A stretch of 64,000 nt of DNA, taken from Octopus vulgaris. Its lineage: Eukaryota. The translations under genes and the position numbers were made by a program. The stretch covers positions 75,578,001 to 75,642,000 of the forward strand of contig OX597827.1 in NCBI GenBank assembly GCA_951406725.2. The letters are read 5' to 3'. Positions 21,228-51,856 of this stretch are shown in pieces. Every line of letters starts with the position of its first letter. The stretch's first letter is position 1. The notes under the pieces were generated by a model. The model was given only the letters and a program-made list of their open reading frames with translations. It did not search any database and had not been told where the DNA came from.

Positions 21228-21923
21228 TTATTCTTCCATCTCTTCTTTTAAAAAATCCTCAATAGATTTACAGACATCATTCATGTCTATATTGCAATGA
21301 TCAGAAAAGCGATTGATGGCTTTTATAAGTTTTGTTAATGCACCACGCCCATGGGCTTGTTTTTTTCTCCAGGAATTAAATGCCTCAAACTTCTGGTTAC
21401 GTGTGCAGTATGGGTTGTCTTGCCTAACATTATCAATTTTTATGCTCTCAATACCTAATTCAGCAGCAACAGATTCCCATCCAGAGCCCATATGCTTCAA
21501 AATACGATTTAACAGTTTCTCAGACAAATCTATATGTTTAACATGTTCAAGGATATTATTTATGTTAAGTTCGTCATTCGGCACACTTTCGTCATTCGGC
21601 ACACTGTCATCAGCATTTTCCACGGTTGATGCTAAACTCGGGTTATGTTCTCTTAGACATTTCACAAATCCATCGAATATTTTTGACTTATTCTGTTTAT
21701 CCTGGCTTTCCACTTTGCGGTGAATAACGTCTAGTAATTTCCGAGCTTTTTCTTGTTCAGTATCTTCTGCTTGAATTACATTCTTTTCCTCGTCATTGAT
21801 AAACGATTGAGATAAAAGACGATCAACCATGTTATTTATTGTCACATCATCAAGCCCATGCACAAGATCATTACGACATCGTTTAATTTTAATTGAGTTC
21901 CCGAGCTGCTGTTTGTTAGCCAT
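21228..21923 (-). CDS. CARD + death domain adaptor protein A (231 aa, RAIDD/CRADD-like architecture), intronless
   Basis: Residues about 8-102 form the CARD (IKRCRNDLVHGL..VDRLLSQSFINDEE..TEQEKARKLLDVI..FDGFVKCLRE.NPSLA), followed by an acidic linker. Residues about 130-222 form the DD (LSEKLLNRILKHMGSGWESVAAELGI..NQKFEAFNSWRK..LTKLIKAI). Confidence 0.85.
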   Translation of the reverse strand: MANKQQLGNSIKIKRCRNDLVHGLDDVTINNMVDRLLSQSFINDEEKNVIQAEDTEQEKARKLLDVIHRKVESQDKQNKSKIFDGFVKCLREHNPSLASTVENADDSVPNDESVPNDELNINNILEHVKHIDLSEKLLNRILKHMGSGWESVAAELGIESIKIDNVRQDNPYCTRNQKFEAFNSWRKKQAHGRGALTKLIKAINRFSDHCNIDMNDVCKSIEDFLKEEMEE

Positions 21924-22269
21924 CGTGCTCTGAGTATGATTAGACAGTCAGTTTTCTACGTGGATACACTAAAAAAATTTGCCGTTCAACTTCTTTATGC
22001 AGCGACGTCTGCGCATGCACACTGAATGTGTTGACGCTCAAAACTGCTGTAATGTGGGTCAATTTCGCGTATAAATTTCATTTCCATATCATACAACTTG
22101 TGCTCAGCTCGGTGTTATAACGCAAGAACTGTCGTTAAGCCCAAAGTATAAACGTGTATTAAAGTTAATTCAAATAAACATAATTATGTCCATGCATTCC
22201 GACTTTCAGTTTAATCGATTTTAGAGAAGCTAAAACTTTTAGTTTCTGAGTGAATTTCTAAATTACATA

Positions 22270-22655
22270 GGTGCAGGAGTGGTTGTGTGGTAAAAAGCCT
22301 GCTTCCCAACCACATGGTTCTGGGTTCAGTCCCACAGTGTGGCACCTTGGGCAAGTGTCTTCTACTTTAGCCTTGGGCTTATCAAAGCCTTGTGAGGGGA
22401 TTTGGTAGACGGAAACTGAAAGAAGCCCGTCGTATATGTATGAGTTTGTTGTTTGTGTGTGTTTGTCCTCCCACCACCGCTCGATAACCGATGCTGGTGT
22501 GTTAACGTCCCCGTAACTTAGCGGTTCAGCAAAAAGTGACTAATAGAATAAGTACTAGGCTTACAAAGAATAAGTCCTGGGTCGATTTATTCGACTAAAG
22601 GTGGTGCTCCAGCATGATCGCAGTCAAATGACTGAAACAAGTAGAAGAGTAAGAG
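22270..22655 (+). mobile_element. tRNA-derived SINE, family A (ggtgcaggagtggttgtgtggt head, agagta tail)
   Basis: Full-length match to 46233-46592 (-) and 63712-64000 (+); absent from the paralogous block at 52136. Confidence 0.85.
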
Positions 22656-23156
22656 AGTACAAATTAAATGACCCTTTTCTTCTCTTTAAAAACGATTTTT
22701 TTTCAAACTTTTGTGTTCCTAAATAAATATTATTAAAATATAATTAACTTTTATTAAATCTATAAAATAGATAACGTATCAATTCACTGTAACATTCAGT
22801 TATATGCAATTATATAACATAACTGTCTTTAATATATGCGCACTATCTGAAAACTGTGGCGGGAGGAATCGCTTATACGGAACCACGTATTTGACTGATA
22901 TTTTATTTCATCGCCTCTGGAGAGATGAAACGTAAGGTTTATATTGACGAGATTCAACACAGACCAAAGAGAGTCGGATGAAATACTGCATAACATATCC
23001 GACGCTCTAACGCTGGCGCTGATCCAACATTCTGATTTATAGACACAAAGCACTGACACACACTGGAAAGAGTACATCCCTTTTGTTCAATATGAACAAA
23101 TTGATATTTTCTAATCGTTTTCTAGTTGCAACGCAACAAAAACCCCACACTTAACT

Positions 23157-24335
23157 AGGGTTGCCAGATTAGAAATATGGAACATTTTTAAATAGCTCTC
23201 TATATATAAATTTATGCATGCCGACACACCCAGAACAATATATTATATAAAAGTAGAGACAAGGGTTAAAAACATAAAGCAATTATTTTAATGGGTTATG
23301 AGAAAAACAAAAGTAAAATCATTTCAAAATCATTTAATACAAGCTTTAAAAAAATTCTGTAAAGTGAAATAATTTGAAAATATTTCTTTAATACAGAAAT
23401 AAAGAAATAGGCAAAAAAATTCTGTTAGATCGAAATCATTGTAATTTTTTTTATTCAATGACAAATAGAGACAATATGAATAAAAAATCTTTTTGTATGA
23501 AAGCATTTGAATATTATTATTTAATACCGGCAATAAAGATATCTAAGAGAAATACTGAGAAAGTGAAATCATTGCAAAATTCTTATTCAATAGAGACAAT
23601 AGAAAAATGCAAAGGAAAGAAATTAGAAAATTATTATTTAATCCAAACACAGAAAGAGACGAAAAAGTTGTGTTTCATATGGAGAACGTGCAAAGAAACA
23701 AAACTGATAAACTTACATGCAAAATTTTCTCAACAGACCGCATGAGAATTAAACTTGAACCTTTACCTTCAGTTATATTTCACTTTTGTTAACAGGTCCT
23801 TGTTTTCTAACACATGCCTATAAAATGCTTTATACTGACCGTTAAGGTTCCATGTGCATTGTAAGATAGCTTCTACAGTAGCCACACCCAACGTATTTCG
23901 TTCATCAGTCCACTGAACATTCATCCTCGAAAAGACACGCTCATCATTAGCATTTTGTGCTGGTGTGCTAATTAAGAACGGGCACAAAATTAACAACTCG
24001 GAGTATTGTTCTTGAAATTCAATTTGCTGAAGGATAGAGAACAATCTTTCTTTCAGTTTGGTCTCCCATTCATCAGGTTTCATCTGCATCTCTTTGGCAA
24101 GGAATTTTTTAAAATGTTCTGCGTCTTCTTTACGTCTGCCTAGGTTTTGATTATATATTTTTAAAAAAAACGGAAGTGGGGTGTGGTGATGGTCCACCTT
24201 GTCCAACGAAATTTCATTAAACCAGATATGTAACGTGGAAAAATATGGGGATTTTTGCAACAATTTCTACAGTTAAGCCAAATGAACATAGAAAGTGCAC
24301 TTAACATACTTGCTTTAACGAAATTTCCACATTTC
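23157..24335 (-). mobile_element. hAT transposon 3' part (dimerisation domain)
   Basis: ISTPAQNANDERVFSRMNVQWTDERNTLGVATVEAILQ is a hAT C-terminal motif; terminus TAGGGTTGCCA at 23157. Confidence 0.8.
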
Positions 24336-24605
24336 AGTATACGTGTAAAATTGGCGTGTGGGGATAAAAAATTTGAAATTTTCCGGGTTTTTTGGGGTTT
24401 TTTTTTTTTTGCATATTCGTAATCTCTGTCAAGTAAAACCTAAGAATCCCAAAAACCTTTTTCAAAGAAAATGCATTTTTTTTTTCATATTCAGAATCTC
24501 CATCAACGAAAATATAGGAATCCGGTGAAAACAAAAACCGGAAAGGTCGGTTCCGGAGGTTGGGGTGACTGTGCACTGGATCCGCCACTTTGTAATGAAG
24601 TTAGA

Positions 24606-25030
24606 GAATATAACTCTGCTGAAACAGAGATAATTATTTTCAAAAAAGTTGTTCCTCTTTGTATATAAGTACCGACGTAATTGGACATTTTTTTCCCCTC
24701 ATTCCCAAACAATGTTATTCTCAGATCTGAAAGTGATCTCCCTTGAACCGATATATACCGCGCGCGTGTGTGCGTGCGTGTATGCATCTTCTACAAAAAC
24801 ACTTCCTCGATCTGCGAACAAGCAAGACTTACGCTGCCTTGCGGCAATGCAACCAATGCCTGTTCCTCCTCCAAATCCTGTCCGCTCACCAAATCCTTCT
24901 CTCCTCACAAGTGCAACATTCCCTCCTCACGTTTCGACTTTCAATATCGAATTGCAACATTGCAAGTCGCACCACGAGTGCCTTTCACTATAATGTTTCT
25001 ATTGGGAATGACGGACAGATTGTCATCTTA
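24606..25030. repeat. Dispersed non-coding repeat (taactctgctgaaacagag / gtgatctcccttga family)
   Basis: Homologous to 46643-47060 and partly to 15330-15510; a weak inverted copy lies at about 52550-52805. Confidence 0.65.
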
Positions 25031-25375
25031 TGAAATAAAACGCTTGGTTTCGGTCATGCTGTAGGCAGAGAATAGTAAAACAACAGACGAAGTGGCAGTG
25101 GATGGCAATGAAAGACATGATGTTACTTTAAGCTAGAAAGTTTCTCTTTTTCCATCTTTTCTCCCGATTTGAGATTTCTATTTTTAATGTGGTTTTATAT
25201 TATATATGTATCATATATACAGACGCATTATATTCTAATAAATGTGTGTGTATGTGTGTGACTATATATATACAAACGCATTATATTCCAATAAATGTCT
25301 GTGTGTGTATATATATATATATATACGAACGCATTATATTCCAATAAATGTCTGTGTGTATGCACATATATATAT

Positions 25376-26429
25376 TGTTGTGGTTCAATTTGAGGACCGT
25401 TGACGGCGACCTACATTTGGCAATGAATCCATTGTTCTGCCAGATGCGGGTTGATTAATTAGCTCTGGGGAAACTTCCTGACCCCGTCAGGTGAATTAGA
25501 GTTCAGTGTGTGAGAGACAGTGAGAGAAATATTGAGTGCCGAAAAAGACAGATTAAGGAATCTGGGGGCTTGTCATGAGAGATACAGTAGAGTGAGAGGA
25601 TGAAGGGCTGAGAAAGACAGATTAAGGAATCTGGGAGCTGTCATGAGAGATGACAGTAGAGTGAGAGAGAATGAGGGGCAGAGGAAGACAGGCAGAGAGT
25701 ATTGCAGAGCTAAGAGAGAGAGAGAGTGATTGCGACAGAGCTAAGAGAGATTGCGGGTAGTGACAGAGCAAGAGGTTTTTGGGCAGTCGGTATTTGGTAG
25801 TCAAGGCGAGCGGTTGGATTTAGGGGTGAGGATTTGGAATTCAAGGCAAGCGGTTAGCAAGTTGGATTTAGCAGTGCTAAGAGAGATGGGGTACAGTATG
25901 AGACATTGGCTATTATAGTAGGAACTAAGGTACGTGAATTGTGTATTGATATGTGAAGAAAAAGAATCGATGTATTGAAATGTAAAAGAAATGAGACAGT
26001 AAAAAAAGAACAATGTGAACTGTGTAAAGACATTGTGTACAGAGTTGTTGAAAAGAACTGTGTAACGAACATTGAACTGTATATGCTTTTAATGTCCTTT
26101 GAACTGTAACGTTAATGTGATTTGAAACAGAACTGTTGTCTCCGGACAGTTTAAATGCTTTGATCTGTGGTATACCTGTATGATGTATTGAGTTGTTTAA
26201 TTCGACGTGTCCTCTTTAAATGTATCTGATATATATTTGATGTAATAATTAATAGTCATATAAACTAGTACGTTAAATGTGAGCCAATTGCCTTCTTTGT
26301 GTCTCTCTCGGTTGCCTCTGTATCTCTTCTTGCGGCTGCTGTTGTAGTTGTTGTTGTCTCTCTCTCCGAGTTTCCGTGGCGAACATTTGCTGATCGACCG
26401 GGCGACGGCAGGTGGTCCGTAACAATACA
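25376..26429. mobile_element. Possible solo LTR
   Basis: About 1 kb block starting TGTTG and ending AACAATACA, embedded in TA runs, with an internal duplicated gaaaagacagattaaggaatctggg; no ORF. Confidence 0.35.
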
Positions 26430-26834
26430 TATATAATTTATATTTTTATATTATATGATCGAACGCCATGCATCCATTTCCAAGTAAGTTTTATCTTAAT
26501 AATTCTGATGCGGCACTTATATCACTATCTGCCTCTATTCTTTCTTTCTCTCCTACCCTGTCTCTATTTCTCCTCCTCCCCTTCACTGTTCTCTATCTTT
26601 CCCTCACTCTTCCTCCTTGACTCTCTCGTTGCTCACACGTGACCAGCGGCTATCTTGCTTTCTCCTCCTTACGCTACAAGCGACAACACACATTTTTGCC
26701 TGTCTCCTGTCAAAGCTCGTTTCTCCAGTGTTCACCCCTTCACTTCATTATGGCTAAACAGTCCTTACCGTTTGTTTTTGCTGCTTTGTTTTTACTGTCC
26801 TGTTTTTGTTACCACGTTAACCCTCCACAAATCT

Positions 26835-27136
26835 CAAATTTTATTTAATTTGCTTTGCAGGAACGACTGTTTTGATGAAGATGCATCTTGTCCTAAACGT
26901 CCGAAATGCAGAGTAGATAAAACAGAGGGCACTGATGAAGGGATTGTTCTTTAGGTTGCCTGTGTAGTTTCTCTATTTGTTTCTTTCGTAGTTCAAAAAA
27001 AAGTTCGTTTTCCATGTTTTTGTTTATTCATGTTCTCGTTTCTCATGTTGTTCATGTTCTTTTGACATCTTGTACCCATATATGCATGTGTATATACATA
27101 CGTAGGTATGTACATGCATGATGTATGTAGGTTTGC

Positions 27137-27171
<35 letters not shown>

Positions 27172-27390
27172 ATACAAAATGGGACAAGAACGCAAAACAT
27201 CCGGACAACCAGGTGATACAAAAAGGGACAACAAAACATCCAGACAGACGATATAAAATATAAAAATAACAAGGATGGGTCATCATTCGAAGCTGTCTAT
27301 CCTCAGTCAAGAACCAGATCATCCTCGCAATTTTAGCTGATTAACCTTGAGATTGCTCCAATCTGGCCAACCCCAAGGAAAAACTAAGCA
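26835..27390. mobile_element. Penelope-like terminal-repeat fragments
   Basis: 27170-27390 is inverted-homologous to 3015-3215; ctgatgaag..cgaaa motifs. Confidence 0.45.
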
Positions 27391-27393
27391 ACA

Positions 27394-28104
27394 CGAGGCT
27401 AGGACTCGCCATGGAGTGAATATTCGGCAGCTTTTAACTGTTTGTTCCAACGCTTCATCTTTGTATCCCGCAAGTCTGGCCAATCTCCTGATGTGGCAAA
27501 CACGTCGACCTCTTCACTCGTCCACTTTGCTTTCCCCAGTGAACCATATGCCATAAATGACCCTTCCGTAAAAGCCTCTATCAGCCGAACATCTATTTTT
27601 TCTTCGCTTAACTGGTCCTTCTCCTCTATTTCCAGGTATAGTGCCAACGCCGATCCATCGAGGTACAATGGAATGAAACTCGATAGGTCATATATACCGT
27701 GGTGTCTTGCCACCAACTTAATTTTTATCAACCAAGCGGCGGTGTCTCCCTCGCCGCAAAATAGCCTAAACGTCTCGTTCGAAACAGGAACCATACCAAT
27801 CATTTTTTTTTTTTTTCTTTTTGAGCCGAAATAGCTTGTGATGTGAAGGAGGAAAAGACAGAAGCAGAGGGAGAATTGCGGTAGTCTTACCTATCGATCT
27901 GGAAGGGTCACTCACAATGTCCGCATACTCTGTCTGTCGCCGTACCATCTAACAGGTCTGCTCTCGTACGCTATCCACTGCCAACTTACTGCTTACATTT
28001 CGCCAACACCGCATGCCCACTGCGGCCATTCTGGTGGGACCCACAGTCCCCACTTCCGACAGGACATGCGTACTACCTTAGTTCCGGTCCTTCTCTACAC
28101 TACA
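27394..28104 (-). mobile_element. Gypsy LTR retrotransposon 5' LTR (27837-28104) + gag fragment
   Basis: LTR homologous to 579-848; gag-like ORF 27399-27803 (FCGEGDTAAWLIKIKLVA..FIPLYLDGSALALYLE). Confidence 0.75.
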
Positions 28105-28219
28105 GAATCAAAAGGTAATCGATGATTCTTTGTATAGTCACACTTTCAAAACTCTCCACAAGTTCCCTATAACTTCGCTGAATTATAGTTGTATTCAACA
28201 ACTGCTGTATTCCAGACAT
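28100..28219 (-). pseudogene. 5' end of a CARD-family paralog disrupted by LTR insertion
   Basis: Translates MSGIQQLLNTTIIQRSYRELVESFESVTIQRIIDYLLIL* (cf. MAALQQMSNAKIIQRYYEVLVKSLDSVGIKKIIDRLL). 5' flank 28220-28306 is homologous to 21924-21995 and 6860-6898. The stop is supplied by the LTR start. Confidence 0.85.
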
Positions 28220-28399
28220 CGTGTTCTAAGTATGCTTTGACATTCAGTGTTGTATGTGGGTAAACACGGAAATGTTTGCTGGTGAATTTCCTAACTACAC
28301 AACTACATCTGTAGAAAGCTTTGTAGCAGGTATATTTTGAACGGAAATCAACTAGAGTTGTTCCGTGAATATTTTCTTTTGGCGCTAAAATACAAGTTT

Positions 28400-28792
28400 A
28401 GGATCTTTTCGGTTTGACCGGCAGTTTTTTAAAATAATTTCCACGTAACTAAACTCTTTTAAACTTCGTATACTGATAGAATGTGTTTATAAAACATCTT
28501 TTTCTCTTGGCTTTATTGAGAACATTCTATGGTTTGTAAGATATTTGTTGTTGTTTTTCTGCAATTTCAACCAATCAATGACGTCTATTGAGGTGAAAAC
28601 ATTATGTGCCGTATATGTCCCTCGTTTAAGAAACAGATTGGGTTTATTTACATTTCTAAAGAAAAAAGATACCCTTCCCCCTAACCCTAAAACAGATTGA
28701 AATGCAATAGATCGATACTAGGGTCATAATTATGGGTGAAAACTTCATATGACACCGCTAGAAAAAACTGCCGGTCAAACCGAAAAGATCCT
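28400..28792. mobile_element. MITE with perfect about 30-bp TIRs
   Basis: aggatcttttcggtttgaccggcagtttttt ... aaaaaactgccggtcaaaccgaaaagatcct; aagttt(a) on both flanks may be a TSD. Confidence 0.85.
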
Positions 28793-30306: not shown

Positions 30307-31270
30307 GTGAATGGCAAACTGCCAAGCAAGCTGAAGGAGGGAATAATATGCCCAATACATAAAGGGAGAAGTAGAGCAGATGCCAAAAACTATAGGCCTA
30401 TCTCTCTGACTTCACACATCAGCAAAGTCATGGAACGGATAGTCAGAAAGAAACTAATCGCATTCCTTGAGGAAAATAACTTGCTGAGTAATACCCAGCA
30501 TGTAGGAGCTGCCTGACCCAGCTCTTACAACATTATGACTGGGTGTTGAGGCAGTTACTCAACAAATCAAATGTGGACGTAATCTACCCTGATTTTGCAA
30601 AAGCTTTTGACAAGGTGGATCATGGTATGATATGCCACAAACTACGTGACCTCAGCATAGCTGGAAAACTTGGAGTGTGGTTGCATGACTTCCTGAAAGA
30701 TAGGAGTCAGGCAGTAGTGGTTAATGGAGCCAACTCTATGAACACACAAATAGTGAGCGGTGTTCCACGGGGCACTGTCTTGGGACCACTGCTTTTTATA
30801 GTGGCCCTCTCAGATATGCCCTCAAATGCCCGGATAGCCACTCTGGCCAGCTATGCAGACGATACGAAAGTCTCGCAGAAAATACAGAACCCCAGCGATG
30901 TTGCACACCTGCAGCAGGAGTTGGACTCAATCTACAGATGGGCTGAGGATAATAATATGCAGTTTAATGCTGAAACATTCCAGGCCCTGCACTACCAGCA
31001 TCCAAAACTGAATATTAAACTTACAGGATACACCAGTCCACAGGGAATTTCAATCCCAGAGCCTAAGTCTGTGAGGGACCTGGGTATCGACATGAGTGAT
31101 GATACCTCTTTCCAAGTGCACATTACCAGGATGGCGACAAAGTGCAGACGACTGGCTGGGTGGATCCTAAGAACATTAGTCTGGCGGACATTCGTCCTCA
31201 GTCGCCTGGATTACTGCTCACAGCTATGGTCACCCACCAGTGTAAAATTAACAGCAGACCTTGAAGAAAT
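30307..31270 (+). mobile_element. LINE reverse transcriptase fragment (CR1/L2 group)
   Basis: [56 protein letters not shown]; frameshift near 30510. Confidence 0.9.
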
Positions 31271-31313
31271 ATATATATATATACATACATATATATATAC
31301 ATACATACATACA

Positions 31314-31347
<34 letters not shown>

Positions 31348-31353
31348 CATACA

Positions 31354-31387
<34 letters not shown>

Positions 31388-31404
31388 CATACATATATAC
31401 ATAC

Positions 31405-31441
<37 letters not shown>

Positions 31442-31648
31442 CACATATATATATACATACATATATATATACATACATATATATATACATACATATATAT
31501 ATACATACATATATATATACATACATATATACATACATATATACATACATATATATATACATATATATATACATACATACATATATACATACATACATAT
31601 ATACATACATACATATATATATATACATACATACATACATATATATAT

Positions 31649-31681
<33 letters not shown>

Positions 31682-31707
31682 CATACATACATACATACAT
31701 ACATACA

Positions 31708-31739
<32 letters not shown>

Positions 31740-31745
31740 CATACA

Positions 31746-31777
<32 letters not shown>

Positions 31778-32045
31778 CATACATACATATACATACATAT
31801 ATACATACATACATATATACATATATATATACATACATACATATATACATATATATATACATACATACATATATATATACATACATACATACATACATAT
31901 ATACATACATACATATATATATACATACATACATATATATATACATACATACATATATATATACATACATACATATATATATACATACATACATATATAT
32001 ATACATACATACATATATATATACATACATACATATATATATACA

Positions 32046-32077
<32 letters not shown>

Positions 32078-32322
32078 CATACATATATATATACATACAT
32101 ACATATATATATACATACATACATATATATATACATACATACATATATATATACATACATACATATATATATATATACATACATACATATATATATACAT
32201 ACATACATATATATATACATACATACATATATATATATATACATACATACATATATATATACATACATACATATATATATACATACATACATATATATAT
32301 ATATACATACATATATACACAT
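31269..32322. repeat. Compound (TA)n/(TACA)n microsatellite, about 1.05 kb
   Basis: Directly visible; explains the stop-free I/Y/H/T and M/Y/V/C ORFs. Confidence 0.98.
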
Positions 32323-34426
32323 GATTGATTGATTGATTCTAGTTTCAGCTTATGAGCTGTGGCCATGCTGGGGCACCGCCATTTGGTGTTGCTACTTGGT
32401 TTCACTTCATGGAGGCTTTCTAGCAACTGCTATTTGGTGCATGAGAGAGTTCGATGCAGCTGCTCTCATCTGCCCCTCCTGCCGTGAAGTTGGTTCATCT
32501 GGGACACCTGACAGGAAGAGATCCAGCTCCATTTTAAAGACATCTGTATCCACCCCATGCAGGTCTCTCAGGTTCTTCGGGAGGATATTGAAGAGCTGTG
32601 GGCCTCGGAAGCCCAGGCTATCACAGAATCTTGTCCTACATCTTGATGGCAAGTTTGGAGTCCTAGGCACCACGCAGTGGCGCCCAGTTCTGGCATTTGC
32701 GTAACTCTCGATGCCAAAGTTCAGGACACTTCCCTCCAGGATCTTCCAGATGTATATTATGGCATATCTTTTCCGCCTACGCTCCAGGGAATATAATTTT
32801 AATCTCTTGAGTCTTTCCCAGTAGCTTACATTCTGCATAGAGGCTATCTTCTTCGTGTAGCTTCGTTGGATCGCCTCAAGTTCTGTGATCAACTTGACAC
32901 TGGATGGTGACCATAGCTGAGAGCAATAGTCAAAGTGGACAAGTGTCTTCCAGAGGACCATCATGGTTTCTTGTTCTCTTGTTCTAAAGGTTCTAAGAAT
33001 CCATCCAGCCAGCCGTCTGCATTTCATTGTCAGTTTAGCAACATGTACATGAAAGGTCGCGTCATCACTCATGTGAATACCCAGGTCACGCACTGATTGT
33101 GCCTCTGGGATTGCAATCCCTCCGGGTCCAGTGTATTCCTTGGGTATTGCATTCAGTTTTGCATGCTGATAGTATAAAGCTTGAAACTTTCCAGCATTGA
33201 ACTGCATGCTATTGTTTTTAGCCCACTTGTATATTTCGTCCAGCTCACATTGCAGGTGCTTAGTGTCCTCAGGGTTCTGTATTGCCTGTGAAACTTTTGT
33301 ATCGTCTGCATAACTTGTGATCGTGGCTCTCTGCGTGGCTGAGGGCATGTCTGAGAGGGCCATTATGAACAGTAGTGGTCCCAGAACAGTGCCCTGCGGA
33401 ACACCGCTCACTATTTGTGTTTTAATGGAGGTGGCCCCATTGGCTACTACCACCTGACTTCTATCCTTCAGAAAGTCATGAAGCCATTCTCCCAGTTTTC
33501 CAACTATGTTGAGATCACGCAGTTTGTGACATATCATTCCATGATCGACTTTATCAAAGGCCTTTGCAAAGTCGATCATTCCATGATCGACTTTATCAAA
33601 GGCCTTTGCAAAGTCGAGATATATCACTTCCACATTTGAGTGGTTGAGCAGCCGTTTCAGCACCCAGTCATAGTGTTGTAGGAGCTGAGTTAAACAGCTT
33701 CTCCCTGGTCGGAAACCATGTTGGGTGTCGGGCAGCAAGTCATTCTCTTCAAGGAAGGTGATCAGCTTCCTTCTGACTATTCGTTCCATGACCTTGCTGA
33801 TGTGTGAGGTCAGAGAGATAGGTCTATAGTTCTTGGCTTCCGCTCTGCTACCTCCTTTATGAATGGGGCATATTTTACCTTCCTTCAGTTTTCCTGGAAG
33901 TTTGCCAGCTGCAAGGAAGCTCTGAAAGAGGAACTGCAGTGGTCTTGCTAGGACTCTCTTACATGCTTTTAGGAGGATTGCCGGGAATCCATCAGGGCCA
34001 GTAGCTGAGTCTGTTTTCATTTCATCTATAGCCTTCGTTACATCGTCTTCCTTTATATCGATGTAATCTATCGTCGCCGCCTCTGATTTTATATCTGCAG
34101 TGGTAAAAAAGTCAGTTGGATTGGTGATTTGGAGATGCCCAAGGGGTGGAGTGAAAACACTCTTGAATTGCTCATTCAGTATTTCACTTACCCTCATTGG
34201 TTTTCCTGTAAGTGTGCCATCCTTTTCGAGGAGTGGCCCTATTCTACAGTGCACTGTAGCTGTTTCTTTGGCATACCTGTAGAAAGCTCTGGGGTTAGAT
34301 TTTATGTTTTCTATAGCCCAGGCTTCTTTGTCTGCTCTTTCTTTTTCATGGGAGAGTTGCAGACATTTTTCGATTTCCAACAGTTTTATTTTTAGGCGGG
34401 ACTTTTCACTGCTTTCAATCTGTTTG

Positions 34427-34428
<2 letters not shown>
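32323..34428 (-). mobile_element. LINE ORF2 3' half (RT to C-terminus, 3' UTR, (ATCA)n tail), same family as 30307-31270
   Basis: Open frame from about 34428 to 32407 with [57 protein letters not shown]; tail tgattgattgattgatt at 32322-32338. Confidence 0.9.
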
Positions 34429-36820
<2,392 letters not shown>

Positions 36821-36822
<2 letters not shown>

Positions 36823-37216
36823 TAGCAGTATCGCCCGGCGTTGCTCGGGTTTGTAAGGGAAATAACTATATAAGCATTTCTAGAGATGTAAAGTATAATA
36901 GCCATCTCAATATGGCTAACCACAAAGGGGAGGGGTGTTACTGTAGCTTTTTACGTTCTGAGATTTAATAATAAATTTTAGAGAGTTACTTCCCTTATAT
37001 ATGTCAAAAATGGATTAAAAATGGGAAAAATTGATGGTAAATTTTTTTTTAAATCGTAGACTCATCGTAGACGTGCGCTAATACCCAGACGGTCTCGATA
37101 TGAATCACGACTATAAGATACCCGGTTTTGGTTAAACTGCACCGCAAAATGTGGGAGTAGTTAGGAATCTAAATCGTAGGAGACAGACACACAACCTCAC
37201 TTTTATATATAAAGAT
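36821..37216 (+). mobile_element. Non-autonomous Helitron-like element
   Basis: Starts ACTAGcagtatcgCCCGGCGTTGCTCGGG (hairpin) and ends gacagacacac..ttttatatataaagat, an architecture seen in invertebrate Helitron-derived repeats. Confidence 0.55.
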
Positions 37217-38970: not shown

Positions 38971-39000
38971 ATATACATATACATATATATACATATATAT

Positions 39001-39043
<43 letters not shown>

Positions 39044-39241: not shown

Positions 39242-39535
39242 GCACAATGGCCCAGTGATTAGGGCAACGAACTCGTGGTCATAGGATCATGATTTCGATT
39301 CCTAGACCAGGCGTTGTGAGTGTTTATTGAGCGAAAACACCTAAAGTTCCACAAGGCTCCATCAGGGGTGGGGGCGATCCCTGCTGTACTCTTTCGCCGC
39401 AACTTTCTCTCACTCTTCCTTCTGTTGCCCTGCTCGCTTATCCAGCAGGGTGGCGTCATTTGGAGGCTAAAACAATGCAAAGCGCATTGTGACCAGTGAT
39501 ATGTAGCAACATCTGATAGCCTGGTCGGTCACGGT
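39242..39535 (+). mobile_element. tRNA-derived SINE (family C)
   Basis: Head tggcccagtgattagggca..tttcgattcc, shared with 61147-61524 (-). Confidence 0.7.
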
Positions 39536-40319: not shown

Positions 40320-42840
40320 AAGAAGTGAGAAAATGATTGCCAGCATTAAAAGGCTGCAGAAGACATGGTTATGGTTACAGAAAGGAAGGCTGAAGAAGGA
40401 GACAGAAAGTTTGTTAGTAGCAACACAAGATCAAGCATTAAGGACTAATTAGATAAAAACCAGAAGAGACAAAAACCAAGTACAGGAATGGGAAGATATT
40501 CAAAAGGAGGAGGTCACCCTGGCCCTGATAAAGGCCAGCAACTGGAAGTCACTGGGAATAGATCAAGTACCAAACATTTGGATCAAACAACTAGTTGATA
40601 TACATGGAGATATGTCATCAGAGAAGTCATGAAAAACCCAGAAAATAGCCCAGACTGGTTGACACAAGGAGTGACATACCTAATACCAAATACAAATGAC
40701 ACAGAAAACCGAGAGAACTATAGACCAATCACCTGTCCTCCACCAACAATGTATAAAATATTATCATCTGTAATCACTGAAACAACATACACATTCTTAG
40801 AAGAAAACAACCTGCTACCACCAGAACAAAAAGGTTGTCGAAGAGGGATCTACGGATGGAAGGACCAATTGCTGATTAACAAAATGATCCCTGAAGACTG
40901 CAAAATGAGGAAAACGAACCTGAGCACATGGATCAACTATAAAGAGGCGTTTGATGGTGTACTTCATTCATGGATTCTGAAAGTGATGGAAGTATACAAA
41001 GTATCCCCAACTCTCATCAAGTTTATGAAACACAGCATGAATACATGGGAAACTACGTTGATGCTGAACCATTCCAGTGGATCAATAACAAGCAGACCAA
41101 TCAAAATCAAAAGTGGTATCTTCCAAGGGGACTCGCTGTCACCCTTAATATTCTGCTTGGCACTGGCACCACTAAGTACCAAGCTCAACAAAACCGGGTA
41201 TGGATACAAGATCAATAAAAAAGGAAGTCATCTGTTCTGCATGGATGATGTGAAAATGTACTAAAAAAATGACAAACAACAAGAAGGTCTACTTGCTACG
41301 GTTAAAAAGTTCAGTGATGATATCAGGATGCAGCTTGGACTGGAGAAATACGCGAAAGCCACTTCCATAAGAGACAAACTGGCATCTTCTGTGGATATCC
41401 ACATAGATACATAAGCAAGGATCCGAGCACTGGACCAGGAGAAAGCATATAAATGCCTTGGCAAAGACAAAAGTAACAGCATAAAACATTCAGCAATGAA
41501 AGAGAAGATTAGAAAAGAGTACTACAAGAGAATACGGTTAGTAACAAAGACTGAACTCAATGCTGCAAACAAAATAGAAGCCATTAACACTCTTGCAGTA
41601 CCAATCGTAGCTTACAGTTTCAACATAATCAACTGGCAAATGAGCGAATTAAAGAAGCTAGACTCCAAGACCAGAAAACTACTGACCATGGCTCGAATGA
41701 ACCACCCAAAAGCGGCCGTGAACAGGATTTATTTACCGAGAAGCATGGGAGGAAGAGGACTAACTCAATTAGAATTATCTTACAAAACCACCACTGTAGG
41801 ATTAAATACATATCTTGAGCTGTCAAAAGATCCTCTCATGAAGCTTGTGCACCAGCATGATAAAGTAAAGAAGCTATACTCGGTATACAAAGGATCTGTA
41901 CAGCTTAAGAAACAACTGAAGATGGAGGAATCTAGGGTGAAGGCGAGTGAGAAAGTAACCCAGTTTGCTAAAAGAGTTAAGGAAGAGATGAAAAAACAAG
42001 CCCAGAAGAAGGGCAAATAAGAATGGCTAGAAAAACCAATGCATGGCCGATACCCATGTAGAGTGAAAAAACCAGACATAGAAAAACGAGACACTCATGT
42101 ATGGATGAAGAGCTCAGGACTGAAGGGTTTATCATAGCAGCACAAGATCAAAGCTTGGCAACCAGGGCTTACTACAACAAAATAATGAACGATGGAACTG
42201 ACCCAATGAGCAGGATGAAACAGTGGACCACAGCTTAACTGGATGCACAGCGCTTGCAAAAACTGAATATATTCATAGACATGATAGAGTAGCGCAATAT
42301 ATATGTAAACACTACCAGCTTCCAACTTCAGAAAGATGGTACCAGCATAAACCTGAAACTGTGACGAGAAAAGATGATGTAACACTACTCTGGGACATGC
42401 CAATGAACACCAATAAAGAAATCAAGGCAAACAGGCCGGACATAATCATCAAAGATGGGAAGAATAAGAAATGCTTAATGATAGATGTGACAGTACCATC
42501 AGAGAGAAATGTGTCCATTAGAGAAGTTGAGAAGTTATATAAGTACAAAGACCTAGAAATAGAAGTGACCAAGATGTGGGGAATGAAAAGCAGCACAGCA
42601 CCAGTGGTGATTGGAGCATTAGGGCTAATTAAAAAGGGCCTTGATAAGCAGCTCCATAAACTCCCTTGCAGTGTTAATGTAGGAGAACTTCAGAAAATAG
42701 TGTTGCTAGGTTCCGCATACATTTTACGCCGTGTACTCTCCATGAGATGAGGACCTGCTGTGACCCTAGGGTCAAGGGATGACCCTGGCTCAGCAGAAGA
42801 CAATGGACTATATTTTATTTTTAAAAAATAATAATAATAA
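40320..42840 (+). mobile_element. R4/Dong-like non-LTR retrotransposon (RT + restriction-like endonuclease), degenerate
   Basis: ENYRPITC, EQKGCRRG, GIFQGDSLSPLIFCLAL, HLFCMDDVK, LPRSMGGRGL, HSLTGC..YIHRHD, RPDIIIKD..IDVTVP..EKLYKYKDL; (TAA)n tail. Confidence 0.85.
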
Positions 42841-44170: not shown

Positions 44171-46232
44171 GTAAAGGCACATTAGGTATGATAAAAAAAC
44201 AAAACATTCAGACAAATGCATAACCCAGACACCAGGACTTACAAGTGTATGTAACACAAAAAACAGCACCAGTAGGCACCACACACATCCAATGTAAAAC
44301 ACTTTCAATACAATGAAACTAAAACCACCACAACAAACCACAGCACATACCCAAGGCACACAGAGCAGCACTCAGTAGTGCAGTGAAAGTACATGATAAA
44401 AATAAGACTACTGAATAATGATGATGATGATGATGGAATACCTAGCACTGGCTCTCCTGGCTTCTGATCTTAATTGATATTGAAAGTGTTATCATGTACA
44501 TGTTTTGTCTTGGTATAAAAGATGGGCTACAGAAAATATTCTGCTCAGTACTACAGATTTTCTTGTCAGTTGTTTGACCTTAACCAGTTGAGCAAGTCCC
44601 TGACAATATGTGCATCTCTGATCACGAGCAGAAGTAGAGAGGGAGCATCATAGCCATGTGTTGAGAGGAATTCTTTGGAGTGTAAATAATTTACCATTGG
44701 AAACTTGGGTTCTTTGTTCAACATCCTTAAACAAGCCTCATTCAGGAACCTTTTGAATAGAATGGGATATTCGACCTGAAGAAAATTCTAACTGGGCCCC
44801 ACCTGCAAGATCATGCGCTGTTTATCTTGATATGAGATCACCATGTCATGCACAAATGGTTGTGATGCATGTGCCTCGTGTACGCTTATCAAACAGGTAG
44901 TCATGATGGGTATTCTGGGCTTCATACATCTATACCTCAGTGTCACTTTGATGGCATGCACTGTTCTCTCACTCAATAATAATAATCCTTTCAGTTAGAG
45001 GCACAAGGCTTGAAATTTGGGGGAGGGAGATAGTCAATTCCATCAAACCCAGTACTCAACTGGTACTTATTTTTGTGACCCCAAAGTGATGAAAGGGACA
45101 GTCAACCTCAGCGTAAATTAAACTGAGAATGTAAAGACAGACGAAATTCCACTAAGCATTTTGGCTGCTCACCACCTTACTCAATAATAATTATATGGCA
45201 AAATGCAAGCAAGAGAAATAATATTCTTAAGATTATAAACCTGGAAAAGTACAGGACAAGTTAATACACTTGGAAAAGTATAGAACAAGAAAATTTTTAC
45301 TCAAAATATTGCAGCTAAGGATAAAATTTCAAATAAAATATTTAGATTTAGAAAATATTAGCTTTTATTAATACTAAAAAATTTATTGCAAGTTATTACT
45401 TCCGTTTGTTATTATTTGTTACCTCTATTATTAAAAAAAATAACTCGAAATATTTTTTTGCATTTTAAAAACATTTTTTAATTATTAATTAATAATTAGA
45501 AATTTGAAAATAGGTTATAAAAAAAGTTGTACATAATTAGTGAGTACAATAAATAGAATAATACAAAAATTAGTTCTATATTACAGTAGAATCTACCTAT
45601 AACAACAAATTCACAGTAAAATTTGCTTGAGTTCTTGCTTAAGTTACTGCCAAGTCTTCACATTTTTAGTCGTGACCCAATGCCTAATTATATACCATAT
45701 ATACTATTCTACTTTGCATAAAACTTTTGATATGGCTCTGTGATAAGAAGTTTAATTCCCAACCACATGGTTTTGGGTTCAATCCCAGAGTGTGACAACT
45801 TAGGCCCCTAACAGACCAAAGCCTTGTAAGTGGATTTGATAGACAGAAACTAAAAGATCCCCATCATATGTGTGTGTGTGTGTGTCCCCTTGTCTTGACA
45901 TCGTATATTAATTGTAAATGATTGTCACTGTCAAAGAAGCAGCGTCACTCATTTCCAGTATTCTGCAAAATAAGGAAATATTACCTTCCAATATTCTGTG
46001 AGAACAATTCTATTCCATAAGGAGATGTTACCTTGCTTGGAAACAGGTAAGGGTTAGATACAGGGAAGACATCTAGCTATAAGAAATTTTTGCCTTGAAT
46101 AAACACCATTCAACTCATGCAAGTATGGAAAAGTGGACATTAAATGACAATTATATTTGCTAATCATGTGTTCATTAAAATTGTCGGTAAAGGAATGGTA
46201 ATGAAATGATCTATTCTGACAGAACAGATATG

Positions 46233-46592
46233 TCTCTCTTTACTCTTTTACTTGTTTCAGTCATTTGACTGTGGCCATGCTGGAGCACCGCCTTTAGTCG
46301 AGCAAATCGACCCCAGGACTTATTCTTAGTAAGCCTAGTACTTATTCTATCAGTCTCTTTTGCCGAACTGCTAAGTTACAGGGACGTAAACACACACATA
46401 CACACATACATATATACATATATATACGACGGGCTTCTTTCAGTTTCCGTCTACCAAATCCACTCACAAGGCTTTGGTTGACCCGAGGCTATAGTGGAAG
46501 ATACTTGCCCAAGGTGCCACGCAGTGGGACTGAACCCTGAACCATGTGGTTCGTAAGCAAAGTTACTTACCACACAGCCACTCCTACGCCTA
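46233..46592 (-). mobile_element. tRNA-derived SINE, family A
   Basis: Reverse-complement match to 22270-22655. Confidence 0.85.
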
Positions 46593-47199
46593 TGTCTATT
46601 GAGTTTATTAGTTTTCTACGTCCATAAATAAGTTTAAAAATATAACTCTGCTGAAACAGAGATGACTATTTTCGAAAAAGTTGTTCCTCTTTGTATAGAA
46701 GTCGCGCCAACATTACTGAATGCTATTCTCAGTGCCAAGCGATGTTATTACCAGAAATTAAAGTGGTCTCCCTTGAACGCATGCCTGTCGCAGCTGTGCG
46801 TGGGCGCGTCTTTTACAATAACACTTCCTTGATCTGCTAACTGGCAAGACGGATGCTATCCTACGGCAATACAATCAATGCCAGTTCCTCTTCATCTCAC
46901 TGACCTTATTCTGTCCGCTCACCACATCCTGATCTCCTCATAAGTGCAACATTCCTTCTTAACTTTTCACAATTCAATAGCAAATTGCAACATTCCAAGT
47001 CGTACCACGAGTGCCTTTCAATAAAATATTTCCCGTGAGGATGGCGAACAGATTGTCAAGTCTAACATAATTTAGATAGTTTAACATTATTAAACTTTCC
47101 AATTACAATGCAGAAGCCAAAATCGATTTGTTGATCAGTGGGGTTATCAGTTTGAGAACCTGTGTCTCAATCCCAGAAATCAATTACAATAGAGCGATA

Positions 47200-47436
47200 A
47201 AAATTACATTATTTACATTTGACGAATATTTGTCCTCATCTTGTTTGTTGTTAACACGTTTCGGCTGATATACCCTCCAGCCTTCATCGGGTGTTTTGGG
47301 GAAATTTCGAACCTGGGTTCTCATTCCTAACGTATTTTTCGGTGTTGTTATTATTATCGTTATTATTCAGGTCACTGCCTGGAATCGAACTCGGAATCTT
47401 GGGGTTAGTAGCCCGCGCTCAACCGCTACGGCATAT
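47200..47436 (-). mobile_element. tRNA-derived SINE (family D)
   Basis: Minus-strand head tgccgtagcggttgagcgcgggctactaaccccaagattccgagttcgattcc with A/B boxes, followed by a non-tRNA body. Confidence 0.6.
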
Positions 47437-47438
47437 GC

Positions 47439-48439
47439 TTAACACCCGACCACCAAAACAAAAAAAAATCGCAATAAGTATGAAAAAAAAATGTGAATTA
47501 AAGGAATATGAGAACAAAAATTTGTGCCAACGAATTGGAGGTGGGGGTGAAAGGACTTTCAGAAAATTCACAAGATCCGAATTTTTTCCCTCATAACATT
47601 CAGGAAAATTGATATCCTTGATTGAAATTTTTATACAAATACATTTCAAACAGTATGAAGAAATTTGTGGAGAAAAATTTTTTTTCCGAGGTAGTGGGGG
47701 TGGACTTTCGGAAAATTCACACGATCCGATTTTTTACCTCATAACTTTTAGGAAATTGGATCTTTTAATGAAATTTTATATAAATACCTTTCAAATGGCA
47801 TTGATTAAGATTATAAAAAAATTTGTAGGGGAAAGTTTTTTTTTTCCGAGTGGGTGGTCAGAGGACTTTCGAAGAGAAAGTTCTAAAATATTTTTACGCT
47901 TGAGCGTAATGGAAGTTTTAAAAAAAATTAGATTCATTCATTTTTCGTTTGAGTAATAGAAAAAGGTTTTTAAAAAGATCCCATGTATTATGATGGGAGA
48001 AACAAATTCATAAATACGGTGTTGAATATAGTTTCACTATGGAAAAATGTTAAGGGCAATTTAGCACATCCCTACCGTTGGGATCTTTTTTAAAACCTTT
48101 TTCTCAAACGAAAAATAAATAAATCTAAAGATTTACCCAATTTTTTTTCAAACTTTTTTCTATTACACTAAAGCTAAAAAAATCATCTCCCCACTCCCTC
48201 CGAAAAAATTTTCCCCACAAATTTCTTTATAATCGTAATCTATGTCGTTTGAAAGGTATCTACATAAAATTTCATGAAAAGATATCCATTTTCCTAAAAG
48301 TTATAAGGCAAAAAATCGGATTTTGTGAATTTTCCGAAAATCCTGTCCCCCCCCCCCCGGGTCGTTGGCGCAAATTTTTGTTTTCATATTCGTTTAAAAC
48401 ACCTTTTTTTTTTTTTTTTTTTTCGTGGCCGAGTGTTAA
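47439..48439. mobile_element. About 1-kb fold-back MITE bounded by TTAA
   Basis: TTAAcacccgaccac ... gtggccgagtgTTAA with long imperfect inverted arms; one-arm copies at about 8960-9300 and 12220-12572. Confidence 0.65.
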
Positions 48440-48784
48440 AGTAAGCATTAATCCGATAAAGTGCTTTTGAAAACAAGAATGAAGATACGACAGATACTGA
48501 AACAGAAACAATCCCCAGTTAGTGTTATTAAAAGACTTTTGGCTGTTAGAATGTATGACAACGAAATATTTTTTTTTAAAGGCTGTATCAGATGGATATG
48601 AAATATATCACTTTGAGCTATCCATTACAAATATATCAAAATATATCGAGGAAATGCTAAACTAGTGTATACATTCAGGTACTCATCTACGCGGGACAGC
48701 ATTCATTTACCCTAACTTTCGCAGATTCTTTTTAATGGCCTTTTAATCCCTGACCGGGATGTCTAATACACAGTTCCTATAATA

Positions 48785-49310
48785 CTTTCTACTATAGGAA
48801 CAGAGCCTGAAATTTTGCGTGAGTCGATTATATCGACCCTAGTGCATAACTGGTATTTCATTTATCGACCTCGAAAGGATGAAGGACAAAGTCGACTGGG
48901 CAGAATTTGAACTCAGAACGTAGCGGCAGACGAAATACCTATTTCTTTACTACCCACAAGGGGCAGAGGGAACAAACAAGGAAAGACAAACGGATTAAGT
49001 CGATTATATCAACCCCAGTGCCTAACTGGTACTTATTTAATCGATCCTGAAAGGATGAAAAGCAAAGTCGACCTCGGCGGAATTTGAACTCAGAACGTAG
49101 CGGTAGACGAAATACTTATTTCTTTACTACCCAGAGGGGGCTAAACACAGAGGGGACAAACGGATTAAGTCGATTACATCTACCCCAGTGCGTAACTGGT
49201 ATTTAATTTATCGACCACGAAAGGATGAAAGGCAAAGTCGACCTCGGCGGAATTTGAACTCAGAACCTAGTGGTAGACGAGATACCGCTAAGCGTTTCAC
49301 TCGCTGCTTT
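48785..49310 (-). mobile_element. SINE family B with internally triplicated body and about 17-bp TSD
   Basis: Three tandem bodies; flanked by acacagttcctataata / acacggttcctataata; the empty site is visible at 18502. Confidence 0.8.
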
Positions 49311-50274
49311 ACACGGTTCCTATAATAAAGGTGATTAAACCACGAACATGATTAACCTTAATATGCTGATAATTAAGTATAGTCGGCGTAACTACAATCG
49401 TCTTTGTTTCCCATAACTTTCTTTAAAATGCATTTTTTACTGAAATTTTTCAGATGGTGAACATTACAATTATGGGTAAATGGCAGATGAAAAACAAGTC
49501 GTTTCGTTTTCTTGGGAGAATCATTTCCGCTTCCCACCGAACTTTATTAAAATCATGCGTTTAACGAAATTTTCAAGAGATACGTTATATCTTACAATGG
49601 TTTTAACAATTTTTTTAACAATAAATTTATTCGCAATCAACACTATTGAATACGTATTTCTAGAAAATGCCATTAAAGATGTACGTTTTAAGAAAGGTAT
49701 AGGGGAAATCAAAATCGATAGGGCGCCTTCTGTAGCTATCCAGCACAGTTAAATCCATCATATATACTTGTCTGTATTCTGAAGGAAATTCATTGCTGAA
49801 AGGTTGGTTTTAATGTTGCAGAACCACCTTATCATTAATATCCATCACGTAACACGCCTTTCTATCTTTATCATACACTACAAACACACAAAGTAATCCA
49901 GCCTTAATTTTGTGTTTGAAAATTAAGATTCCTCCAATTACATTCACTTACCATTTCAGCAAGTTTATTATCAACAATATATCGTTGCGTTGAAGTTCGT
50001 TGTTTTCTTAGTTGCCTCCAAATAAGAGTCTTCATTTCTGATAAATTTATGGCTTGTTGTAGCACAGAATTTTGTCAGTGATCAGGTCGCGGTCCCAAAG
50101 CGACGAAAATATTTTGGCAAATTAAATTTTAATTTTGAAGTAAATCTAACGGTTTTTGTGTGTTTTTTAAACGGTTTTCAAACACCTTCCGCGCTGCAAT
50201 TGTTTTGGTTTCAGCACACGATCTCAGATCAGGTCATTTGCTATGCAAGTACATCTCCGTAATATAAATATATA

Positions 50275-50607
50275 AAGGGTAAAGACCCCCTTCGGTCATG
50301 AATGACCATGGGATTGCACCTAGAAAGTTACCCTCCTAGACACAAGTCCGGGCAAGGTTGTTTATGGAAGACCAGCAGTCGCCCATGCATACCGGATTCC
50401 CCTCTCCACGCCACCAGTGTTATCCAAGGGAAAGACAAAGGTCGATACAGCTTGGCACCAGAGACGTCGCAACTCATTTCTAAGGCTGAGTGAACTGGAG
50501 AAACGTGAAATAAAGTGTCTTGCTTAAGAACACAACACGCAGCCCGGTCCGGGATTCGAGCTCACAACCTCACGATCGTAAGGTCGACGTTCTAACCACT
50601 GAGCCAT
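50275..50607 (-). mobile_element. tRNA-derived SINE
   Basis: Minus-strand head atggctcagtggttagaacgtcgacc..gagctcgaatcccggacc. Confidence 0.7.
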
Positions 50608-51199
50608 ATATATATATATAAAGATTATATACAACCGGTGTTTAGCATTAGGGTTACGCCGAAAACGGGTGGTGTGTGTATTCTTTACCTCCGTATTCTT
50701 TACGCCATATATGTGTGTGTGCGCGCGCGTATATATATATATATACATATGAAATTATACTGATTGATACTATCCGTAACTAAAACAAAAAATATATATA
50801 TTTATGATAAAAAAATTTATGTAAATATCAAAAAGTGAAGATTTGTAGTCGACAATAAAAATAATGAAGGAAAGAGTCGCATACTTCCGCGTTTGACATG
50901 ATGTTACTTTAAGACGGCAACTTTCCAAAGTGAAAATCGAAAGTAATCTGTCCGTTGAAAAGGATTCAATAATTGGAATGTAATGTCTGTTGATAATGCA
51001 TTATTTCGCTTTTCGCATGTCGATGTTTAATATCAGTCCACAACGTAAGAATTATGCCGTTTAGTGTAGGATAATTTCATTTTTGAAGTGTCGATTCTTT
51101 ATGTCCATATCAAAAAGTGTATCGGTGAAACTGTATTTTTTTTTATATATTAACAAACAACATTGTAAAATCTGCGCGTTATTCTTCCTTCTTTTCTTT

Positions 51200-51856
51200 T
51201 TAAGGGTCTTCAATACATTCAAGTATTTTATTCATGTTGAAATTGCAATGAACAGAACAGTAATTGATGGCTTTTATAAGTTTTGTTAATCCACCACGTC
51301 CAAGGGTTTCTCTTTGCCTCCAGAAATTAAATATCTCAAACATCTGGTTTCGTGTGCTGTGTGGGTTGTTTGCCTTAGCAATACTAATTTTTACGCTATC
51401 AATATCTAATTCGGCAGCAACAGATTCCCATCCAGAGCCTATAAACATCAAAATACGATTTAACATTTTCTCATTCAAATCTATATTTTTAACACGTTCA
51501 AGGATATTACTTTTGTCACTTTCGTCATTCGGCACACTGTCATCAGCATTTTCCACGGTTAATGCTAAACTCTGGTTATGTTCTCTTAGACATTTCACAA
51601 ATCCATCGAATATTTTTGACTTATTCTGTTTATCCTGGCTTTCCACTTTGCGGTGAATAACGTCTAGTAATTTCCGAGCTTTGTCTTGTTCAGTCTTTTC
51701 TGCTTGAATTACATTCTTTTCCTCGGAGGTGATAAACGATTGAGATAAAAAATGATCAACCATGTTTTTTATAGTCACATCATCAAGCCCCTGCACAAGA
51801 TCCATACGACATCGTTCAATTTTAATTGAGTTTCTGAGCTGCTGTTTGTTAGCCAT
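51200..51856 (-). CDS. CARD + death domain adaptor protein B (218 aa), recent paralog of A
   Basis: Intact ORF collinear with 21228-21923; CARD KARKLLDVI..FDGFVKCLRE and DD IGSGWESVAAELDI..NQMFEIFNFWRQ. Confidence 0.85.
   Translation of the reverse strand: MANKQQLRNSIKIERCRMDLVQGLDDVTIKNMVDHFLSQSFITSEEKNVIQAEKTEQDKARKLLDVIHRKVESQDKQNKSKIFDGFVKCLREHNQSLALTVENADDSVPNDESDKSNILERVKNIDLNEKMLNRILMFIGSGWESVAAELDIDSVKISIAKANNPHSTRNQMFEIFNFWRQRETLGRGGLTKLIKAINYCSVHCNFNMNKILECIEDP

Follow-up and report, generated by a model that had tools for sequence, protein, structure and literature searches.

The A and B Genes and Their Cluster

The window analyzed here is the whole 64,000-nucleotide stretch of Octopus vulgaris DNA at G000:C14:75578001-75642000 (contig OX597827.1). 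It contains two related genes, A and B, which are members of a CRADD/RAIDD-like cluster of genes encoding a CARD together with a death domain (DD). Gene A (21228-21923, minus strand) is an intronless open reading frame (ORF) of 231 amino acids with Pfam matches to CARD (E 1e-12) and Death (E 8e-8), and gene B (51200-51856, minus strand) is an intronless ORF of the same layout with 218 amino acids. In A, B and two further copies, D and E, both domains are found above the Pfam cut-off without any other domain, and all four ORFs are intact.

The CARD of A (21609-21923, minus strand, codons 1-105) is near those of B and E and 31 residues away from that of D; it carries the selection signal described below. 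The DD core of A (21315-21494, minus strand, codons 144-203) is of a type shared with D, from which it differs by 4 residues, as against 22 from B. Beyond the core, the helix-6 end of A (21228-21314, minus strand) differs from both B and D, which match each other there. The DD core of B (51266-51445, minus strand) is of a more ancestral type, and gene B is the top match within the genome for a gastropod CARD-DD protein. Two structural differences accompany these changes. An 18-nt tandem duplication in the linker (21570-21605, minus strand) is found in A and not in B, and the stop codon of B (TAA, 51200-51202) lies 7 codons ahead of that of A. As the stop position of B is shared by D, coincides with the last residue of O. 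bimaculoides P0004 and is seen in a contig of sequencing run X1, it is A that carries a 7-codon read-through tail.

A genome search with A returned nine matches, all inside 150 kb and thus in a single cluster. Seven of these (A, B, D, E, F, G and H) are of the CARD-DD type, and the other two are a gene with a CARD alone and a CARD that is broken. The cluster holds at least seven CARD-DD-type copies, with gene H lacking a Pfam match; D and E are located just outside the window.

Divergence of A and B from Their Flanks

When A (21228-21923) and B (51200-51856) are aligned, with the CARD taken as codons 1-105, they show the contrast to which the initial annotation of the window had drawn attention. 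Its hand counts of 6 differences in 280 bases of 5′ flank and 11 in 357 bases of 3′ flank are reproduced by alignment, as are 19 nucleotide changes in the 315 bases of the CARD, with 13 replacements and one purely synonymous codon. The 42 replacements that it gave for 106 residues of the DD become 38 in 102 codons, because residues of the linker or beyond the stop had been included; the strong divergence itself stands (58 of 330 nucleotides), and so do the named patches of change and the two invariant stretches, GSGWESVAAEL and LTKLIKAIN. In effect, the DD diverges far beyond its flanks (Fisher p 2e-15). Uncounted at the time were 6 purely synonymous codon differences in the DD, or 6 in 38.5 sites (0.156).

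The block of homology around the two genes extends from 20789 to 22203 on the A side and from 50732 to 52136 on the B side. Outer pieces differ at 23 of 495 positions (20016-20510) and 3 of 81 (22843-22923). A multi-copy repeat resembling a short interspersed element (22265-22657) lies upstream of A and D, is not found upstream of B, and breaks the A-B homology.

A more recent comparison is offered by gene D, since A lies in a segmental duplicate (9628-30255) whose twin, containing D, ends just before the window (G000:C14:75547264-75573570). Over some 19 kb, the two duplicates differ at 179 of 19,216 non-coding sites (0.93%), while in the coding sequences of these two genes 78 of 654 bases, and 56 of 218 residues, are different. 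Thus, the pattern first described for A and B is stronger in a pair that was outside the view of the initial annotation. A non-coding divergence of 0.93% would fall in a range possible for alleles, and A and D might be haplotypes of a single locus that the assembly has placed side by side, the difference between their CARDs being a balanced polymorphism. In run X2, however, the word depth of stretches shared by A and D is about twofold (143-151) that of B-type contigs (75), and pieces of A, B and D type have similar depth, although such depth is not copy number and X2 may share data with the assembly. This arrangement therefore seems extremely improbable, and the result for A and B is in any case independent of it.

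About 100 bases before the ATG, a 12-base motif (22009-22020, minus strand) has the same sequence in A, B, D and E, in a flank that is otherwise 40% diverged, and its conservation suggests that it is likely a promoter element. Such an element would be expected if constraint had been relaxed on redundant copies while functions of the untranslated region and promoter held the flanks. Also consistent with relaxation are the lower divergence of E in its 3′ flank (24%) than in its DD (32%), the broken CARD copy within the cluster, and site model M1a, which shows almost no purifying class among the paralogs. Nevertheless, the four intact ORFs argue against it, as does the coding divergence of A and D set against 0.9% over 19 kb that include repeats. 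Moreover, as shown below, the DD types are conserved across organisms, and the ratio of replacement to silent substitution rates (dN/dS) of the CARD exceeds 1 instead of equalling it. We thus hold relaxed constraint to be very unlikely.

Mosaic Structure of the Copies

The four copies do not share a single history along their length: the odd copy is D in the CARD, B in the DD core and A in helix 6. The 34 informative coding sites fall into blocks that group the copies as AE|BD, AB|DE, AD|BE and again AE|BD, so that all three tree topologies are represented, with 9 switches (permutation p<5e-5); an odd-one-out test of A, B and D at the codon level gives the same p (<5e-5). The CARD of E is 24 of 315 bases (7.6%) from that of A, though the 5′ flank of E is 40% away. 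A similar patchwork is seen in O. sinensis, where P0003 joins an A/B-like CARD to the DD start of D (0 differences) and the DD core of E (1 difference). From these sequences, we infer that A, B, D and E became a mosaic through repeated interlocus exchange.

Donors are harder to find. The assembly holds none for the helix-6 end of A, a search of it for extant DD donors gave nothing beyond A, D, B and E, and among shorter homologs 0 of 7 candidates scored. Replacement of the DD by conversion from another extant paralog consequently finds no support, given that the DD of A matches only these four genes (4 of 4 candidates).

Excess of Amino Acid Change in the CARD

With topologies set tract by tract, the dN/dS of the CARD among the four copies is 2.68, 2.47 and 2.83 under three codon-frequency models (p 0.011, 0.020 and 0.006, respectively), and none of 207 neutral mosaic simulations reaches 2.68. 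When 16 multi-base columns are removed, the remaining single-base sites comprise 27 replacement changes and 1 silent change (p 0.0017). Site model M2a gives a likelihood ratio test (LRT) value of 16.8, which none of 48 neutral replicates equals. Between A and D, whose CARDs differ at 31 residues, no silent codon is found among 42 changes (p ~0.0025 under the mutation spectrum of the flanks). Thus, the significant signal of selection sits in the CARD and not in the DD, and the CARDs likely diversify adaptively. Together with the mosaic of the whole gene, which becomes visible only through copies outside the window, this signal is the part of the pattern that the initial annotation missed.

Age and Stability of the Death Domain Types

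A different picture emerges for the DD. Between A and B, its dS is 0.13-0.15, that is, 3-5 times the 2-5% found in non-coding sequence (2.7% in the flanks and 4.5% in the outer non-coding blocks). The check proposed by the initial annotation, a codon analysis by domain, shows dS in the DD to be raised above that of the flanks (8/59 vs 17/637, p 6e-4), and the silent rate is also higher than that of the outer non-coding blocks (26/576, p 0.009). With a substitution rate of 0.0036 per Myr, quoted in PMC13282606, very coarse ages of about 20 Myr for the DD split, 6 Myr for the A-B flanks and 1.3 Myr for A-D would follow.

Tests for selection on the DD remain short of significance. Its dN/dS is 1.5-1.95 between A and B (p 0.12-0.2) and 1.35-1.58 among the four copies under the same topologies and codon models as above (p 0.06-0.26). 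Single-base sites, with 33 multi-base columns removed, comprise 39 replacement and 11 silent changes (p 0.36). Site model M2a gives an LRT of 6.8 (nominal p 0.034), a value that 2 of 23 replicates simulated as neutral mosaics also attain, for which reason it was dropped as evidence of selection on this domain. The first idea of the initial annotation, positive selection acting on the DD in a burst that followed a recent duplication, could draw on that nominal p, on a dN/dS of 2.2 in the A-B DD core and on the position of the changes on known interface helices. It could also draw on their direction: at 32 A-B differences, O. bimaculoides agrees with B in 18, with A in 7 and with neither in 7, and most of the change therefore lies on the A/D side. 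On the other hand, the raised dS largely refutes such a burst, there is no deficit of silent codons (6 vs 9.3 expected under neutrality with the flank mutation spectrum, p 0.17), and the types look static in a second organism. We thus consider it distinctly improbable, although episodic selection on the DD when the types originated is possible. A grouping of B with O. bimaculoides in segment trees was also considered, and it is unsupported (38-50).

The stability of the types was surveyed in contigs from 8 of 24 listed sequencing runs, four from organism A and four from organism B. In organism A, B-type DD pieces occur in 4 of 4 runs, D-type CARD pieces in at least 3 of 4, and exact or near-exact A-type DD pieces in at least 3 of 4. 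In organism B, the B-type DD core is present in at least 3 of 4 runs with changes at 0 of 210, 1 of 215 and 1 of 215 bases, and A/D-type DD pieces are present in all four. At least 2 of the 4 runs of organism B contain CARD pieces of D type, whose 26 and 28 differences are precisely the numbers expected, and at least 2 contain pieces bearing the 18-nt linker repeat. Hence, at the DD peak, copies in organism B differ from those of the assembly by 0-1 positions, as against 32-36 between paralogs. In run X9, A-type letters are missing from several of the diagnostic sites, and in X6 the B-type core is missing, but contigs cannot show absence, and variation in the presence of the copies is thus unproven. 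Pieces of A, B and D type also occur in runs presumed to be RNA, which are given no weight here as evidence of expression. Between species, E and O. sinensis P0003 differ by 1 residue in the DD core, and F and P0005 by 0 of 122 in the DD. Runs X5 and X6 contain one more DD variant, not found in the assembly, which lacks 12 bases of helix 3 and mixes A and B letters (positions 51384 and 21419-21446).

Since dS in the DD is raised and the types are near-unchanged in a second organism, the DD types are read as old and stable. They are divergent from each other and not hypervariable, as had been proposed; the A-B difference is probably old, and selection likely keeps the types distinct. An alternative is a one-off swap, in which A/D and B duplicated recently and a DD core arrived from an old paralog or allele since lost or unassembled, with no selection maintaining the types. 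A high dS with a dN/dS not significantly above 1 agrees with this, and the variant with the 12-base deletion indicates that unsampled donors exist. Yet no donor appears among the 4 of 4 DNA matches, the types persist in the second organism, the DD is the more diverged domain in the pairs E-B and F-G as well, and the elevated dN/dS of the CARD would be left unexplained. A swap of this kind is, in our judgment, unlikely.

Structure and Contact Residues of the Death Domain

The predicted model of A contains two helical bundles (pLDDT 81, pTM 0.49). Within the DD, A-B changes affect 7 of 10 residues in helix 3, 5 of 15 in helix 4, 6 of 11 in helix 6 and 0 of 7 in helix 2. RAIDD numbering was transferred by a sequence alignment anchored on G128, F164 and R170 (after PMC6169973). 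According to PMC4332690 and PMC6169973, R147, Q169 and R170 of RAIDD are DD-DD contact residues. The equivalents of Q169/R170 are kept in B and are K/K in A and D, while at the position of R147 B has I and A has N. Changes at these positions may reflect a change of partner.

Relationship to CRADD and Candidate Partners

CRADD is the link between an upstream DD platform and a CARD caspase. The octopus proteins resemble RAIDD in architecture, and several comparisons bear on the identity of the cluster. With the DD of B, RAIDD DD structures 2O71 and 2OF5 come first among 48 matches (E 1e-6), and the modelled DD superposes on 2O71 with a TM of 0.85 by target length (E 0.015), the best single-DD fold match. 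The CARD does not recover the RAIDD CARD (3CRD) among 48 and 34 matches, in which the CARDs of NLRC4 and APAF1 rank above; the gastropod relative likewise has no 3CRD match. All 6 of 6 genome matches of Haliotis P0030 fall in this cluster. In a midpoint-rooted tree built without vertebrate RAIDD, the cluster makes up a clade of 22 rows next to other CARD-DD proteins of molluscs. A neighbouring protein, P0001, is recorded as 'domain-containing CRADD [Octopus vulgaris]', and both it and P0004 carry the source name CRADD. Strict orthology of the cluster with molluscan CRADD is likely, though not proven. Compared with CRADD/RAIDD of the PIDDosome, the layout of CARD, linker and DD in about 220 amino acids is the same and the DD is nearest to that of RAIDD; the octopus cluster differs in having at least seven CARD-DD-type copies in addition to CARD-only ones, in being intronless and mosaic, and in a CARD dN/dS of ~2.7.

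Published accounts of these genes are divergent. PMC11463336 describes lophotrochozoan CRADD as a unique and conserved activator with a dN/dS of 0.91, reports CRADD in molluscs with APAF-1 and PIDD not found, and proposes CRADD-caspase-2/Y pairs. In PMC9389742, Pidd1 is reported in squid and Cradd is stated to be missing from squid and octopus, whereas PMC7836458 cites PIDD homologues of clam. According to PMC11431876, a CRADD-annotated protein, with the copy unspecified, was detected in octopus skin mucus, and in the passages of PMC4346834 consulted CRADD is named in legends only. No description of this cluster was found in the literature searched, the coverage of which excludes subscription journals.

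Regarding partners, the PIDD-specific domain PF10461 had no match among 127 candidates in an exon-by-exon search with a 33-position model. There are 83 caspase-domain matches in the genome, and CARD caspases are present. One array (G000:C26:33.70-33.82 Mb, L058-L067) has at least 16 intronless ORFs in ten stretches, 15 of them with a CARD. These resemble by eye the caspase-Y sequences in the PMC11463336 supplement, and 6 have Tyr at the catalytic Cys; the latter are possible decoys. Co-selection of caspase-Y CARDs with the adaptor is unsupported, as their dN/dS is 0.90. Another array (G000:C5:54.1-54.5 Mb) accounts for 25 of the 83 caspase-domain matches, and further arrays are found on C19 and C28. 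On C24 (38.85-39.06 Mb of G000:C24, L046-L056), eleven CARD exons of two types show minimum replacement:silent counts of 20:2 and 4:0; these 11 CARDs were dropped as caspase partners, because no caspase domain match lies nearby.

Other Features of the Window and of the Genome

Gene G (52818-53501, plus strand) is an older CARD-DD paralog placed head-to-head with B, with 962 bases between the two ATGs, and E and F form a head-to-head pair in the same arrangement. The CARD-only paralog, C1, lies at 6496-6840 (minus strand), and a fragment at 4225-4393 (minus strand) is 95% identical to its CARD. Between gene H (L009:1465-2064) and its ortholog in O. sinensis, 16 of 102 residues in the CARD region and 8 of 98 in the DD are different; between gene F and its ortholog in that species far fewer are, 4 of 108 in the CARD region and none of the 122 of the DD mentioned above. 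A distant CARD-DD relative spans two reading frames elsewhere in the genome (L036:1411-2081, on G000:C8), and there is a continuous relative, P0022.

Three to four related repeats of 0.8-1.2 kb, 93-96% alike, lie at 8031-14052 and contain ORF remnants, which we take to be transposase-like. Two reverse-transcriptase-like remnants at 30492-36879, presumably belonging to long interspersed elements (LINEs), are broken by AT/AC microsatellites of about 1 and 2.4 kb, and additional LINE-like pieces are found at 40599-42750.

Interpretation and Implications

The reading that we consider probable is that of a mosaic cluster driven by gene conversion, in which selection likely preserves old DD types and favors amino acid change in the CARD. 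Repeated conversion would reshuffle the copies and keep their flanks alike, while selection would hold a few old DD types apart and promote replacements in the CARD. Each protein may act as a two-ended adaptor, in which the DD would pick the platform upstream of it and the CARD would engage a CARD caspase, so that shuffling of modules would create new pairings of input and output. Conflict between host and pathogen would be a likely driver. Selection and gene conversion, the two processes invoked by the initial annotation, are thus both present, albeit not in the form proposed: the data do not demonstrate recent positive selection on the DD (p>0.05 for its dN/dS), and the significant signal is that of the CARD.

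Several observations weigh against this account. The selection tests use no more than four nucleotide sequences, all of a single assembly. When E is left out, the CARD dN/dS is 2.27 (p 0.06), and for the pair A-B it is 1.3, which is not significant. Conversion of the flanks lacks direct demonstration from orthologous flanks in a second species. Trees of the DD core do not reject A, B and D as a clade (p-AU 0.11), and the split therefore cannot be placed before O. bimaculoides. Organism B, perhaps O. sinensis, is known by a code and comes without an estimate of its neutral divergence from the reference. For an enrichment of DD changes away from the hydrophobic core, a hydrophobicity proxy gives no more than a trend (8/31 vs 29/68, p 0.12), and in the candidate partners on C26 the caspase CARDs have a dN/dS of 0.90, not above 1, with 0.66 in the catalytic part.

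Comparable systems are known. The divergence-peak model under gene conversion is reviewed, together with major histocompatibility complex (MHC) and plant R-gene clusters, in PMC3924837, on which the comparisons that follow draw. The peak in red/green opsins shares with the octopus genes the near-identical flanks of paralogs, the inclusion of silent sites in the peak, and the greater likeness there of orthologs than of paralogs; the octopus case differs in having at least four copies, several separate tracts and a second domain that diversifies. MHC and plant R-gene clusters share tandem copies, pseudogenes, patchwork exchange, variants found across organisms and an excess of replacements. Nevertheless, these encode ligand-binding receptors, in contrast to the octopus gene, which is an intracellular signalling adaptor without a known pathogen ligand. 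A bolder and rather doubtful proposal is that octopus has made the single CRADD adaptor into a combinatorial immune switchboard, in which germ-line recombination would join a few ancient DD inputs to fast-evolving CARD outputs. These modules would segregate between species as MHC variants do and pair with the expanded caspase-Y array and its catalytically dead decoys.

The evolutionary mechanism itself, with its divergence peak and patchwork exchange, is already well known; the surprising part is that diversification occurs at the adaptor instead of the receptor. In PMC11463336, CRADD is proposed as the sole CARD-caspase activator in molluscs because neither APAF-1 nor PIDD was found, and it is pictured as single and conserved. 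Several discrete and conserved DD types joined to selected CARDs contradict that description, since what is found is not one conserved copy under purifying selection but nine matches in a cluster, with a CARD dN/dS of 2.5-2.8. The cluster likewise contradicts the absence of Cradd from the octopus genome stated in PMC9389742. Finally, the naturally occurring DD types (A/D, B, E and the one with the 12-base deletion) are usable as baits for the missing partners.

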